Shown here one piece after another: positions 5,136 through 43,049 of a stretch of 64,000 nucleotides of DNA. Positions within the stretch are counted from its first letter, which is position 1. Each line of letters begins with the position of its first letter. Position numbers and translations under genes: made by a program. The notes under the pieces are model-generated. The model was not told the DNA's origin, searched no databases, and saw only the letters and a program-made list of their open reading frames with translations. Location: sequence record PZ496580.1. The stretch is one strand, 5' to 3'. This DNA comes from a phage.

Positions 5136-6605
5136 CTATTCCCCATTACCATTATACTTTCTTTGCTTAGTTATCCACACTCTAACCATCTCTACAGATT
5201 CGCCGTCAGACGGATCAAGAGTTTTTCCTTTTTTCTTCATGCGGTACTTAAATCCGTTAAATCTTGCATTCTCTTGCTCGTTAAAGTCGAACATCTTTTT
5301 AAATGATTTTCGCCCTTTACGCTCACCGCATTCTAGAGGAATCATTCGGTCTGTTATTACATTGGCATTAGGTAGAAACGTTTTTAGATAATCTACCAAC
5401 GCCCAATCAGGAACATATAGATTAACATTCTCCTTGCTCTCGTTGTCTCTCAGGTTACAACGCAAACATAATTGAAATGCTGGTTCCAGATAATCAGACA
5501 CATGACGCGCTTTCAAAAACTCGTTTGTTGGGAGATCGCAACTATTAGCAAGACCTTTTAAAATATCAATCTCCCATCGTTGAGGGTTAAAGCTGAACAT
5601 CACAGCAACATTTTTATGATGAATGTAAGAGTTAAGACCATAAGATCCGTAAGGTATCCGCTCACCAATACCATTTGTGCACGCTTCTCGGTCCCGATTC
5701 ACGGTATAAATGAAGTCATCACCACATTCATTTTTAACCATATCAACAAGACGTTCAAAGGTATTGTTTGTTTCTGACTGGTGACGCGACCATCGTTCAG
5801 AGTCCGTCATAAGGATGATATTAACTCTATCTGTATTTTTATACTCTTTGAAATATAGTCTGGATTCTAGCGCACTCGGAACAAAATCACAATTTGCATA
5901 GTATCGTAGATACTTCCCACTATATGTATCAAAGAGATTTGCACATGCTATCGTAACCTTTTTAAAGTCTCCCCACGTACCGTGTTTGTTATCGTTCAAG
6001 AAAACAATTTTCGACCCATTCTTCCGGTGGCCTTCGTTATGTTTTACCATAACGTTGATTTTCTTCTCTAATAACGCCTCATAAAGCCCTCTAAGAGAAG
6101 AATCGATCATATCAGTACCATCCTTTGCACTTTCTATCTTTTCTTTGATAGCGGCCTTCTCAGAGTCTTTTAGAACTAAGTTCTGTAGGCATTCCGATTC
6201 GTCGGCGATTGGTTCGCAATGCTTCGTGATAAGTTCAAGATTAGACTTAAACGGATACTCATTAAATTCAACCAGTTGAGGAACTTCATCAATGTAAAGA
6301 GCATAATCACCAAACATTTTTGAACGTTCCATATTAGATAACGCTGTATGTGTAATGAATATCACATCAGCACCATCTTTAACTGATTGCATTATCGACG
6401 CTTGCACTGTCTTAAGGCTTCTTAGTCTTGTGCTATCAATCAAGACAGCACGACCGCCCATTCTTTTAAACTTATTGTAAGATTGTTCACTTAAAACACG
6501 AGATGGCGAAGCAATAACCGCTTTTTCTTTTGTCTCTAGGACGTGGGAAAGTATAGCATCAGTTTTCCCCGCCGCTGGCAATGCGATTAATGTTTCAATC
6601 TTCAT
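5136..6605 (-). CDS. P-loop NTPase, helicase-like N-terminal domain (489 aa), function unknown
   Basis: Walker A LPAAGKT, helicase motif Ia-like SPSRVLSEQ, Walker B LYIDEV; C-terminal Cys cluster CLRCN; ATG at 6605 overlaps stop of upstream ORF (TAATG). Confidence 0.6.
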   Translation of the reverse strand: MKIETLIALPAAGKTDAILSHVLETKEKAVIASPSRVLSEQSYNKFKRMGGRAVLIDSTRLRSLKTVQASIMQSVKDGADVIFITHTALSNMERSKMFGDYALYIDEVPQLVEFNEYPFKSNLELITKHCEPIADESECLQNLVLKDSEKAAIKEKIESAKDGTDMIDSSLRGLYEALLEKKINVMVKHNEGHRKNGSKIVFLNDNKHGTWGDFKKVTIACANLFDTYSGKYLRYYANCDFVPSALESRLYFKEYKNTDRVNIILMTDSERWSRHQSETNNTFERLVDMVKNECGDDFIYTVNRDREACTNGIGERIPYGSYGLNSYIHHKNVAVMFSFNPQRWEIDILKGLANSCDLPTNEFLKARHVSDYLEPAFQLCLRCNLRDNESKENVNLYVPDWALVDYLKTFLPNANVITDRMIPLECGERKGRKSFKKMFDFNEQENARFNGFKYRMKKKGKTLDPSDGESVEMVRVWITKQRKYNGNGE

Positions 6606-38626: not shown

Positions 38627-38872
38627 TCATAGATCACAGATCCATCTTAAAGCACCACATAAAGCGATCAGAAGACTAGGTATAAACGAGACTAAAACAA
38701 GATTACAAAAATCATCTAAGGTAACGCCGGAATAGCTACCAACTGTAACAACACCGATCATCAGACACAGAAAGAAAACAAATGCAATCAGAAACAAAGT
38801 ATTGCTAAACAGTTTAGTGATCATTAGACACCCCACGACGGTCAATTTCAAAAACTTTCTTATCACCAACAA
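38627..38872 (-). CDS. small membrane protein (81 aa)
   Basis: Hydrophobic. Confidence 0.4.
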   Translation of the reverse strand: MLVIRKFLKLTVVGCLMITKLFSNTLFLIAFVFFLCLMIGVVTVGSYSGVTLDDFCNLVLVSFIPSLLIALCGALRWICDL

Positions 38873-39017
38873 AGCAGGTCACTACCGCCTCGTTGACTTC
38901 CGCAAATTGTTGTGTTACCCACTTAAGGTCAGATCGAAACAATGTTCTATTAATAACAAAACTTTTGCCGCTCTTATCCTTACCCATAAATTTTGCTTTA
39001 ACCATATCCAATTCCAT
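38814..39017 (-). CDS. hypothetical protein (67 aa)
   Basis: ORF. Confidence 0.35.
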   Translation of the reverse strand: MELDMVKAKFMGKDKSGKSFVINRTLFRSDLKWVTQQFAEVNEAVVTCFVGDKKVFEIDRRGVSNDH

Positions 39018-39026
39018 ATTATCACC

Positions 39027-39185
39027 TTATTTGCTAATCGCTAAACCTAATCCGAAGAGAGCACCCGACGCTACAGTATACCCGAAAGTTTCAAAGGCAG
39101 TAAAGATATCTAAGCCACCAGCTAACAGAGTTGCAGTAAACAGAGTACCAGCTACGAACATAAAAGTTTTACCGATAAATTTCAT
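39027..39185 (-). CDS. small membrane protein (52 aa)
   Basis: Hand-translated MKFIGKTFMFVAGTLFTATLLAGGLDIFTAFETFGYTVASGALFGLGLAISK; AGGAGA Shine-Dalgarno; downstream of promoter 39211-39245. Confidence 0.35.
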   Translation of the reverse strand: MKFIGKTFMFVAGTLFTATLLAGGLDIFTAFETFGYTVASGALFGLGLAISK

Positions 39186-39251: not shown

Positions 39252-39629
39252 TTAAGAATATTTTACTTCGTCTACAATGTCTTTCATGACATTGATTTCC
39301 ATTCCGGTCAGAACACGTTGGAACATGTGCTGAACATACGCTTTCAGGTATTCATTTGACGGCTTGCTATCAAAAGTCTTTTTAGTGTAGTAGTCATCAC
39401 CGAACGCTACTGTAATTACATTTTCGTCGTCATTCCAAGCGATATAAGCAAATTTGCCGTTATCCCAGAAGCGAGCACTAATTGCTACTTTTGTTGAATC
39501 GAATCCTACTTCGCTGTGAGATTCAAGAACTACTTGCGTGCCAGTTTCTTTATGAATGTAGTAGCGGGATACTAAGTCAAAGTTACGGGTGTAGTGACAT
39601 TCGAATTTATCTTTAAACATCATCATCAT
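39252..39629 (-). CDS. hypothetical protein (125 aa)
   Basis: ATG (first of four consecutive Met codons) at 39629 with AGGAGA, downstream of promoter 39667-39695. Confidence 0.5.
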   Translation of the reverse strand: MMMMFKDKFECHYTRNFDLVSRYYIHKETGTQVVLESHSEVGFDSTKVAISARFWDNGKFAYIAWNDDENVITVAFGDDYYTKKTFDSKPSNEYLKAYVQHMFQRVLTGMEINVMKDIVDEVKYS

Positions 39630-39666
39630 TTTGATTCTCCTAAGTGTGTTTCGTTTCGATGTGTGC

Positions 39667-39695
39667 ATTATGCTATAGTCGTTTATGGTTGTCAA
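39667..39695 (-). promoter_or_regulatory. sigma70-type early promoter
   Basis: TTGACA(39690-39695)-17-CATAAT(39667-39672). Confidence 0.6.
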
Positions 39696-39699
39696 CACA

Positions 39700-39732
39700 T
39701 AAAAACAAAAAAACCCCGAAAAATTTTCGGGG
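39700..39732 (-). terminator. rho-independent terminator after gene 57B
   Basis: Stem ccccgaaaa/ttttcgggg followed by long U-run on minus strand. Confidence 0.6.
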
Positions 39733-39739
39733 TATAGAA

Positions 39740-40204
39740 TTACAGTTTGGTCGTCCACTCCAGATCTAGATCTTCGACATACTCATGAGATCGGACAATC
39801 TCTAAATCGAACTCTAGGTCAGTGCCAAATTTACGCGCACCAACATCATAAGAAAGCGTGATATGCGGTACATATTCAGGATAATCCCACGTCGCACCTA
39901 AAGCAGTTCCGATATCGTGTCTGAATTGCATGTAGTCGCTTTCAAATGCCAGCACCAGTGCATTAGTACCGGATTGAGTTTCAAACACTTTCAGGTGGCA
40001 TAGAGAGCCTAAAAACTTTTCACCCTCTTCTGGGATAAACGGAACATAGACACGAGAATATAAGATAGTGCTATGCAGTTTATCACGAGGAACGGCATTA
40101 GGCAGATCGTAGAACTCCTGCAATTTTTCAATGCGGTCTAGTGTATCCTCAGTGAATTTAACCGCCGCATATGTACCTTTAACGGATTCTCGAAACGGGG
40201 TCAT
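39740..40204 (-). CDS. 57B: gp57B-like 2H phosphoesterase (Acb1-type anti-CBASS candidate)
   Basis: Two HxT motifs (KLHSTILYS and VPHITLSYD) at spacing typical of 2H/LigT-fold phosphoesterases; synteny 57B-57A-1 as in T4; ATG at 40204 with GGAGG (track start 40210 is TTG). Confidence 0.7.
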   Translation of the reverse strand: MTPFRESVKGTYAAVKFTEDTLDRIEKLQEFYDLPNAVPRDKLHSTILYSRVYVPFIPEEGEKFLGSLCHLKVFETQSGTNALVLAFESDYMQFRHDIGTALGATWDYPEYVPHITLSYDVGARKFGTDLEFDLEIVRSHEYVEDLDLEWTTKL

Positions 40205-40206
40205 AA

Positions 40207-40458
40207 TCAAGCCTCCGTGATCAGTTCTACTTCCTCTTCTGCTTCTTCGTCTTTAGGGAGAAGTGCTTTTACTTCTTCGACGATAGCATCAAGGGAAACA
40301 GTGCCATTTTCATCTGGCTGAATACCCAGAATGCGTACCAGTTCCATCAATACACGCTCACGATCTTTCAGTTGGCCTTCTAAGAATGCGGCCTTTTCTT
40401 GAGTGTCAAACAGACGGACTTTCAGGACATTAATCATTTGTTCATGCTGATTGGACAT
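40207..40458 (-). CDS. 57A: gp57A-like small coiled-coil chaperone of tail fibre assembly
   Basis: About 83 aa, acidic coiled coil, immediately upstream of 57B and downstream of gene 1 as in T4; ATG at 40458 with AGGAGA. Confidence 0.6.
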   Translation of the reverse strand: MSNQHEQMINVLKVRLFDTQEKAAFLEGQLKDRERVLMELVRILGIQPDENGTVSLDAIVEEVKALLPKDEEAEEEVELITEA

Positions 40459-40490
40459 ATTCACATCTCCTACTTGTTGATAACTTTTTA

Positions 40491-41147
40491 TTAAATGTTC
40501 GCGAGAATCGCGCTTTCAAATTCTTCTAATGTACCATTATTTATGATAATGGTTTCACCGTCAATAGGCACAATTCCTTTTTCGGTGGAGTGAGTCGATA
40601 CAATACCAGTATCACGCTGAATATGCAGCACCTTAGCACCCATAGAACGCATGAGAGCAATTTCAATAGGCTGACGCACATCAACCACTACAAAATACCC
40701 TTCTTCATTTTTTCGCTTCATAAACTCATTCACGAAGAGATTACACCAATAAAGCGGATTGATCAAGTTAACCATTATATCAGTACCGAGAGTGGTTAAC
40801 ATGAGACGAATGGACCAGACGTTATTATGTTTTTCGCCGATCTCATTAACGACCTTGTAAATCTCAGCCAGACGATCACAAGTAAAGGAACTACCGCCAT
40901 ACTTCGAATCTAGCATAAGCAGACACTGAATAAACCACTTATGCGCGGTATAGGTATCAATACCTAGATCGGCTTCTCTGTCACGCCCTAACCCGTCAAA
41001 GTCAAGATAAGTCAGACCTAAGTCTGGTTGACATTCGCATAAGATTTCTTTGATCGGTGCTGCCAGTTGATAACTATGTCCATCAATGATTAACGCGGCA
41101 GTGTCTTTTCCTACTCGCTTTTTACCACAAAGTGCAATCAATTTCAT
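40491..41147 (-). CDS. 1: deoxynucleoside monophosphate kinase gp1
   Basis: MKLIALCGKKRVGKDT P-loop collinear with T4 gp1; ATG at 41147. Confidence 0.85.
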   Translation of the reverse strand: MKLIALCGKKRVGKDTAALIIDGHSYQLAAPIKEILCECQPDLGLTYLDFDGLGRDREADLGIDTYTAHKWFIQCLLMLDSKYGGSSFTCDRLAEIYKVVNEIGEKHNNVWSIRLMLTTLGTDIMVNLINPLYWCNLFVNEFMKRKNEEGYFVVVDVRQPIEIALMRSMGAKVLHIQRDTGIVSTHSTEKGIVPIDGETIIINNGTLEEFESAILANI

Positions 41148-41162
41148 TATATAAGCCTCTTA

Positions 41163-41753
41163 TTACTTTCTAAAAGCAGGGTGCATAGCTTTAATACCTT
41201 CCACCCGCTGACGATCCGCCGCCTGAATTGCAGGGCGAGGAACGATCAGTTGACCATCACGTTCAATGCTCATTGTTTTAAATGGAAGAATTGCAGTACA
41301 TACCAGAGATTCATGCATATCATCGGTGTATGTTAACTCAAGTTCCCCCAATTGTGAACACCAACAACCATAAAAGTTAAAAGTGCATACAATGTTACGG
41401 CGTTCATTGTCCATCATGTGAACTTGAACGGCTTCCGGCATTGAATCCTTCCACGCTGTGGAGTTACCGTTATTGTAGTCTACTATAGAAAGCATCCATG
41501 TGTAAAGGTTTAGATAGCTTTCTAGATGTTCATCGACAATAAACCGAACTACCAACGGGTCAAACTCCACATGACTAGACGGATAATCAGCAACCGCCAA
41601 ACCATATTGACCAGCAACTTGCTTAGTCGGTGGAATGGTTATAGCAGGAAGTGTAACACCTTGAGCATTTAAAGTAAAGCCTTTTGTTAGTTGACCATCT
41701 GGAATGGCAATCTGCCAGTTGCTAGGGTTAGCATAGTTAAAGAGATTGGACAT
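41163..41753 (-). CDS. 3: tail completion / sheath stabiliser protein gp3 (by synteny)
   Basis: 196-aa ORF between genes 1 and 2 as in T4 order 1-3-2-4; ATG at 41753; no diagnostic motif recognised. Confidence 0.55.
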   Translation of the reverse strand: MSNLFNYANPSNWQIAIPDGQLTKGFTLNAQGVTLPAITIPPTKQVAGQYGLAVADYPSSHVEFDPLVVRFIVDEHLESYLNLYTWMLSIVDYNNGNSTAWKDSMPEAVQVHMMDNERRNIVCTFNFYGCWCSQLGELELTYTDDMHESLVCTAILPFKTMSIERDGQLIVPRPAIQAADRQRVEGIKAMHPAFRK

Positions 41754-42203: not shown

Positions 42204-42222
42204 AGCCCGTCAATGACGGGCT
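42204..42222. terminator. bidirectional terminator hairpin
   Basis: 8-bp stem agcccgtc/gacgggct, 3-nt loop; A-run on one side and T-rich on the other; between the plus-strand small ORF and gene 2. Confidence 0.55.
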
Positions 42223-42227
42223 TAATC

Positions 42228-43049
42228 TTATGCATCCTTCCAAACTTTCCTTGCGTCGTATTTCTTGCCTTTTGACATAAACTGATATGTAGGCATATAG
42301 ATAATATTGCTCCAGTCTTTCGGGCTAATCTCAACAAGTTTTGTTTTAATGTGTCCCGGTAGATATGCTTTGATCATGTGATCACTTCCACGCATACCTT
42401 TTACATCGCTCCATTTGATTTTTAAGCGTGTTTTATTGCTCAATGTAGGAGTAGATGCATATTGCTTTAAAAGTGCTTCCAGAAACTGCTGACGGGCTTT
42501 AGGCGTTACATAGTGTAAGTTAAGACCCAACATTACAGTATTACCCGCCTTTGTCTTAGAATCACCCAGACAAATGATCAGCGGGAAAACATCCCAATAT
42601 GGCAAAGTGTCTTTATACTTCGCATCATACATAAAGGTATAGATTCGCCCTACTTGCGGTTTTACAATCTGGTGTCCCTTTATTCCCGTTTTTATTGTTT
42701 TAGTAAACCATTCCTGTGATTTTTCTTTAGGACGACTTTTGGATACAGCACGCATAGACGCACGAAAATCATTAATCATCATCATTGCGCGTTGCTGCTT
42801 ATTGAGACCCTTTGCACTTTTCCCTTTTAGTTTTTCAACTTCTATTGCTGTTTTAATTTCGCTGGCATAACGAGACATACTTTTAGTGAAAGTCGCATAG
42901 GCTATTCCCTTAGAATCTGCAAATACTTTAGCTGTCATGCCTTTGGCTTTTGCTTTCGCAAATTCTACACCCAATTCGACCCACTGTTTAGACTTTCGTT
43001 TTTGGGGAGACGGCTTTTCGTCTTCTGTGATTATTTCAAATACGCTCAT
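42228..43049 (-). CDS. 2: DNA end protector protein gp2 (by synteny and size)
   Basis: 273 aa (T4 gp2 about 274 aa), basic N-terminal region, between genes 3 and 4; ATG at 43049. Confidence 0.6.
   Translation of the reverse strand: MSVFEIITEDEKPSPQKRKSKQWVELGVEFAKAKAKGMTAKVFADSKGIAYATFTKSMSRYASEIKTAIEVEKLKGKSAKGLNKQQRAMMMINDFRASMRAVSKSRPKEKSQEWFTKTIKTGIKGHQIVKPQVGRIYTFMYDAKYKDTLPYWDVFPLIICLGDSKTKAGNTVMLGLNLHYVTPKARQQFLEALLKQYASTPTLSNKTRLKIKWSDVKGMRGSDHMIKAYLPGHIKTKLVEISPKDWSNIIYMPTYQFMSKGKKYDARKVWKDA

Follow-up and report, generated by a model that had tools for sequence, protein, structure and literature searches.

The open reading frame described here very probably encodes the Krischvirus orthologue of Acb1, a metal-independent phosphodiesterase of the 2H fold that would remove the signals of CBASS. 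It lies on a phage DNA of 64,000 nucleotides (PZ496580.1), hereafter the window, which is that of a Krischvirus, an RB49/Phi1-like T4-type coliphage. The identification is supported directly by homology, by the conservation of functional residues, by synteny, by an intact frame under purifying selection and by expression signals. A preliminary description of the same DNA had taken the product for a gp57B orthologue of the Acb1 type, had placed its gene at the 57B position and had named T4 gp57B as the founding Acb1 enzyme. These points were borne out: the protein is a full-length member of the Pfam family PF23474 and is 53% identical to a crystallised Acb1, the gene follows directly after gene 1 and 57A, and the founding role of T4 gp57B is confirmed by the literature (PMC9117128). 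The window thus carries an unmistakable and intact version of the Acb1 gene known from T4-type phages. This is an unremarkable member of the family, one that has already been catalogued, and it brings no new biology.

The acb1 gene (gene 57B) extends over positions 39740..40204 on the minus strand, a strand that the preliminary description left unstated. It is 465 nt long, begins with ATG, ends with TAA and specifies a protein of 154 aa. An alternative in-frame TTG at 40210 was considered, which would make the protein two codons longer and overlap the stop of 57A. This candidate was rejected and the ATG at 40204 was preferred because the sequence GGAGG is found 7 nt upstream of it, because the N-terminus of the protein lines up with T4 gp57B from the ATG onward (alignment A1), and because the same ATG is annotated in the Phi1, RB49 and JSE records.

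A search against Pfam was used to assign the family. The protein scored 174.4 bits with Acb1 (PF23474; gathering score 27, E=1.5e-51), and the match, which spans residues 9-152 of the protein and profile positions 1-143 of 144, is full-length. Among all PDB sequences the sole match (E=1.8e-43) was the Acb1 of the Erwinia phage FBB1, entries 7T26 and 7T27; the identity is 53% across 142 residues, and the entire crystallised chain is covered. T4 gp57B (NP_049750.1) is 47-48% identical over its full length. NCBIfam holds no model for the acb1 protein or its three downstream neighbours. By tblastn, homologues were found in 1476 records, and 56 phage records encode a protein with an identity of 99% or more.

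A single-sequence AlphaFold2 model was tried as a check of the fold and was unusable, with a mean pLDDT of 37.5. The predicted compact 2H phosphoesterase fold with a C-terminal lid rests on the 53% identity to the crystal structure along the whole 7T26 chain, a match that includes the C-terminal EDLDLEW segment.

The preliminary description had drawn attention to two HxT motifs, HST and HIT, spaced as in 2H-fold enzymes. Both are present, at residues 44-46 and 114-116, respectively, and their spacing of 70 residues compares with 69 in T4. The protein contains no other H-x-T/S motif, and two of its five histidines fall in these two. When the residues were shuffled, however, at least two HxT motifs appeared in 5.8% of the shuffles, so the motif count by itself is barely above chance. 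The two motifs were therefore dropped as standalone evidence, and the case must rest on homology. The weight of the observation lies in the full-length homology and in the alignment of both motifs to columns that are invariant in the family.

The alignment to T4 Acb1 that the preliminary description had called for placed both motifs on the catalytic tetrad. In the T4 enzyme H44, T46, H113 and T115 are positioned over the scissile phosphate and the H44A/H113A mutant is catalytically dead (PMC9117128). The residue numbers of that study match T4 when counted on alignment A1, if one residue is added at the N-terminus of the old X03016 translation. H44 and T46 of the first T4 motif correspond to H44 and T46 of the window protein, and H113 and T115 of the second correspond to H114 and T116 (alignment A1, residue check). 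Furthermore, a nine-sequence alignment (A2) was made of the window protein and the homologues of Krischvirus G2494, T4, FBB1 and Acinetobacter, Aeromonas, Vibrio, Klebsiella and Pseudomonas phages, reaching down to 34% identity. It contained 15 invariant columns, among them H44, T46, H114 and T116.

The residues that bind the ligand were compared in the same way. T4 Acb1 stacks the bases with the aromatics Y12, W74, F107 and W147, contacts adenine N6 with E141, and closes with a lid formed by the C-terminal residues 145-152 (PMC9117128). In the window protein, Y12 is retained, the adenine-reading glutamate is E144 and the stacking tryptophan of the lid is W150. The two remaining positions of the aromatic cage differ from T4, W74 being replaced by F74 and F107 by Y108, and in both cases the crystallised FBB1 enzyme has the same residue as the window protein.

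Taken as a whole, the likeness to T4 Acb1 extends from the gene slot directly after gene 1 and 57A and the length of the protein (154 aa in the window, 152 aa in T4) to the identical HxT/HxT tetrad, Y12, glutamate and lid tryptophan, and to a stem-loop and early promoter that follow the gene in both phages. Apart from the two aromatic substitutions, the window protein differs from T4 Acb1 by insertions of a single residue near position 80 and of two residues before the last strand, and the next gene is ipI in T4 whereas it is an unrelated ORF of 126 aa in the window. The closest solved structure is that of FBB1 Acb1, determined as the apo form (7T26) and with a 3'3'-cGAMP analogue (7T27), which shares with the window protein the tetrad, the lid, phenylalanine at position 74 and tyrosine at the position of T4 F107. 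It differs in host genus and in a two-residue insertion of the window protein before the C-terminal strand, where the window reads LEFDLEIV and FBB1 reads YK--VPVV.

Within the genus, nothing of substance distinguishes the window protein from gp57B of RB49, Phi1, JSE and more than 50 other Krischvirus genomes. The 3.5-kb stretch around acb1 is 96-98% identical at the DNA level to Brandy, Phi1, JSE, RB49 and about 55 others. The protein is 100% identical to gp57B of Phi1, RB49 and JSE, and one residue separates it from gp57B of pEJ01 and from that of G2494, the latter being 99% identical. Relative to the window, four intact Krischvirus orthologues carry 7, 6, 8 and 13 nucleotide substitutions, and because 33 of these 34 substitutions are synonymous (the four comparisons are non-independent), the intact acb1 frame shows the signature expected of purifying selection.

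Frameshifted copies of acb1 were observed in two public Krischvirus records. In Cognac (MZ504877, positions 301-764) a 1-nt deletion lies in a T5 run at about codon 64, and the annotation splits acb1 into two small ORFs; in vB_Eco_TB34 (OX001802, positions 301-767) acb1 has two 1-nt insertions. These frameshifts could be sequencing errors, or they could reflect a natural loss of the gene like that in the BASEL phage Bas43 and in Panoptes escapers (PMC13577387). In some relatives, AV108 and phiS among them, a homing-endonuclease insertion was found within the same 3.5-kb stretch around acb1.

The position of the gene was examined next to that of its T4 counterpart. All genes of the neighbourhood are on the minus strand, in the order gp3 (41163..41753), gene 1 (40491..41147; gp1, dNMP kinase, Pfam DNMK PF21448, E=5.9e-68), 57A (40207..40464), 57B/acb1, an ORF of 126 aa (39252..39632; ORF125 of Phi1), an ORF of 52 aa (39027..39185; ORF124) and dmd (38814..39017). 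The tail-fibre assembly chaperone 57A was assigned from the Phi1 annotation and a Pfam match to GP57 (PF17594, E=3e-06) of 27.3 bits, the cut-off being 27; the 126-aa ORF belongs to phrog_15253 and had a sub-threshold match to Pfam Gp30.7 only. The T4 order is gp3, gp1, 57A, 57B and ipI, so that the order 3-1-57A-57B, with dmd nearby, is as in T4 and Phi1. The TGA stop of 57A lies 2 nt before the acb1 ATG, and the GGAGG of acb1 is inside the last codons of 57A. A sigma-70-like site, TTTAGA-17-TATAAT, was found by the promoter scan at 41174..41146 as a consensus match only. Gene 1 is probably the first gene of a 1-57A-57B transcription unit and acb1 would be the last gene of that transcript, a co-transcription which we infer because of the T4 layout.

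In both phages acb1 borders a region with other anti-defence genes, ipI in T4 and dmd in the window. The ipI gene of T4 is an anti-defence gene (PMC9117128), and the slot of this anti-restriction gene is filled in the window by the 126-aa ORF (39252-39632). The 126-aa ORF, the 52-aa ORF and dmd may be members of an anti-defence cluster. Other differences in gene content were seen in the surroundings. Compared with Phi1 (5239-6247), about 1 kb is missing from the window (at about 42216-42230), between ORF130 and gene 2; in Phi1 this segment holds ORF130.1, which encodes a hypothetical protein of 343 aa, and its flanks align at 97% and 90%. T4 has a tRNA cluster about 1.4 kb downstream of 57B, and ARAGORN found no tRNA genes in the window (1-64000).

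Expression signals are also present 3' of acb1. The terminator scan identified an intrinsic terminator on the minus strand at 39713..39733, a stem-loop of ACCCCGAAAA/TTTTCGGGGT, also given as CCCCGAAAA/TTTTCGGGG, followed by a T7 run. The stem-loop begins 7 nt past the acb1 stop codon, its RNA folds with -12.8 kcal/mol (z = -4.1), and none of 200 shuffles was as stable. The same stem-loop is annotated as a terminator in G2494 and TB34. Directly after it, the promoter scan identified an early-promoter-like site, TTGACA-17-CATAAT (11/12), on the minus strand at 39667..39695. PeSL (promoter-early stem-loop) recombination and regulatory cassettes have been described in RB49 and Phi1 (PMC2839356), and the stem-loop with its early-promoter-like site fits a cassette of this type. 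It forms the border between the conserved core block and a variable region with ORF125, ORF124 and dmd. At the equivalent place T4 has a stem-loop and the early promoter PE2.

The -10 box, leader and Shine-Dalgarno sequence of this promoter (CATAATGCACACATCGAAACGAAACACACTTAGGAGA, window 39636-39676) recur with 92.7% identity in 16 Pseudotevenvirus-type phages, whose hosts are Cronobacter, Klebsiella and Enterobacter. In Cronobacter phage leN (901-941) the element precedes a gene unrelated to its counterpart in the window (BLASTP E=1.6). The element looks like a mobile promoter-leader module. The possibility was considered that acb1 had been lost or replaced in Cronobacter, Klebsiella and Enterobacter relatives, a suspicion that arose from phages of these hosts which matched the 3.5-kb region and not the acb1 coding sequence. 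It was rejected: what matches is the 41-bp promoter/leader element in unrelated Pseudotevenvirus genomes.

The function of the protein is assigned by analogy with family members that have been studied directly. T4 gp57B is responsible for the cleavage of cGAMP in infected cells, and T4 delta-acb1 has a replication defect of more than 300-fold on a CBASS host and none otherwise (PMC9117128). Both 3'3'-cGAMP and cAAA were cleaved by 10 of the 10 Acb1 homologues tested, of which none is reported to come from the Krischvirus clade, and lysates of T4-related phages degraded CBASS signals in the screen of the same study (PMC9117128). Krischvirus vB_EcoM-G2494 was among the phages screened (Supplementary Table 1, PMC9117128), while RB49, Phi1, JSE and Krischvirus are absent from the main text of that paper. 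In the searchable literature we found no biochemical or genetic test of the window protein or of any Krischvirus Acb1, and no paper that combines Acb1 with RB49 or Krischvirus. The activity of Acb1 is metal-independent, and adenosine-containing cyclic di- and trinucleotides are cut, but not cGG or cA4. The enzymatic activity, the substrate range and the anti-CBASS effect in vivo of the window Acb1 would be expected to follow those of its studied relatives.

By this analogy, the window protein would be a small metal-independent 2H phosphodiesterase produced early in infection. Judging from T4 and FBB1, its ligands would be 3'-5'-linked cyclic di- and trinucleotides that include one or more adenosines (3'3'-cGAMP, cUA, cAAA and cAAG, for example). 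Y12, F74, Y108 and W150 would sandwich the ligand, with E144 reading adenine N6, and the C-terminal lid would shut over it. With the adenosine strained, H44/T46 and H114/T116 would drive the attack of the 2'-OH on the 3'-5' phosphodiester, and the ring would open via a 2',3'-cyclic phosphate intermediate to give a linear product with a 3'-phosphate. An attack by the 2'-OH, a 2',3'-cyclic intermediate and a linear 3'-phosphate are the steps of the 2H mechanism reported for Acb1 (PMC9117128). The second messenger would then be gone before the CBASS effectors are activated, and the phage would escape abortive infection. The removal of a host second messenger is an aim shared with Apyc1 and Acb2, neither of which is homologous to the window protein; Apyc1 is a Zn-dependent cNMP phosphodiesterase of the MBL fold, whereas Acb2 is a sponge that binds the signals without cleaving them.

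It is very unlikely that the protein is instead an RNA-repair or RNA-processing 2H enzyme, that is, a LigT/ThpR-like 2'-5' RNA ligase or 2',3'-cyclic phosphodiesterase acting on broken tRNA or mRNA ends. This reading has names on its side, since the protein falls in phrog_755, whose PHROGs label is 'RNA ligase', and the gene is named likewise in RefSeq for RB49, Phi1 and JSE; the label, however, was apparently carried over from similarity of the fold. The 2H phosphoesterases of the LigT/ThpR type (PF13563) also have two HxT motifs and a metal-independent acid-base chemistry via a 2',3'-cyclic phosphate, the HxT/HxT chemistry being common to all 2H enzymes. Acb1, however, forms a compact family of its own, set apart by a lid and by an aromatic cage that accommodates cyclic oligonucleotides. 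Pfam 2_5_RNA_ligase2 (PF13563) matched weakly, with 19.4 bits (E=0.0011) over residues 70-126 only, which is below its cut-off of 27 bits, compared with an end-to-end match to Acb1 at 174 bits. Moreover, the residues for cyclic oligonucleotides, Y12, the aromatics at 74 and 108, E144 and the lid tryptophan, are all present, and the T4 orthologue has been shown to act as a cGAMP-cleaving enzyme in infected cells.

That the protein is an Acb1-family enzyme whose main target lies outside CBASS, for example cA3 of type III CRISPR or another cyclic-nucleotide pathway, or whose substrate range has shifted, is likewise highly improbable, and this would refine the anti-CBASS reading more than compete with it. 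In favour of it are the small insertions of the clade and its identity of only 47-53% to tested enzymes; in addition, Acb1 degrades cA3 in vitro, and Panoptes senses the depletion of cA3 or decoys (PMC13577387). On the other hand, the named specificity residues are all conserved or as in the crystallised FBB1 enzyme, the same activity was found in 10 of 10 homologues across the tree (PMC9117128), and nothing points to a shifted range. A smaller change is conceivable, in that the substrate range of the Krischvirus Acb1 could differ from that of T4 in detail because of the two insertions, one residue near position 80 and two residues ahead of the last strand. The 47-53% identity, F74/Y108 and the two-residue insertion ahead of the lid strand make it conceivable that the range is altered outright, sparing Panoptes decoys or reaching extra signals, for example, and that the Cognac and TB34 frameshifts are escapes from Acb1-sensing guards. 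We regard this combination as unlikely, though somewhat less so than the alternatives discussed here. A role as an accessory factor of tail-fibre assembly, which the name 57B beside 57A might suggest, is barely credible. Only adjacency and the probable co-transcription with 57A speak for it, whereas the growth of T4 delta-acb1 like wild type without CBASS indicates that virion assembly does not require the gene (PMC9117128), and the protein has the fold and active site of a phosphodiesterase.

The identification of the protein as Acb1 bears on how its relatives are named. In public records gp57B of Krischvirus goes under the names 'RNA ligase', 'hypothetical protein' and 'conserved hypothetical protein' instead of Acb1. 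The 'RNA ligase' label occurs in many records of Krischvirus, Klebsiella and Vibrio phages, and an anti-CBASS name was seen in one listed record only (GADU22). The lag in the annotation of Acb1 is systematic. Dozens of Krischvirus records still give the gene an outdated 'RNA ligase' or 'hypothetical protein' label, which should be changed to Acb1. By analogy with T4, the phage probably carries a broad-spectrum nuclease against CBASS signals. The presence of Acb1 is useful for the prediction of host range, for example when therapeutic phages are chosen. It is also a known liability, since Panoptes systems of both type I and type II restrict phages that express Acb1, and such phages escape via inactivation of acb1 (PMC13577387). 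Acb1 thus also predicts sensitivity to guards of the Panoptes type, which are triggered by the depletion of cyclic nucleotides (PMC13577387).
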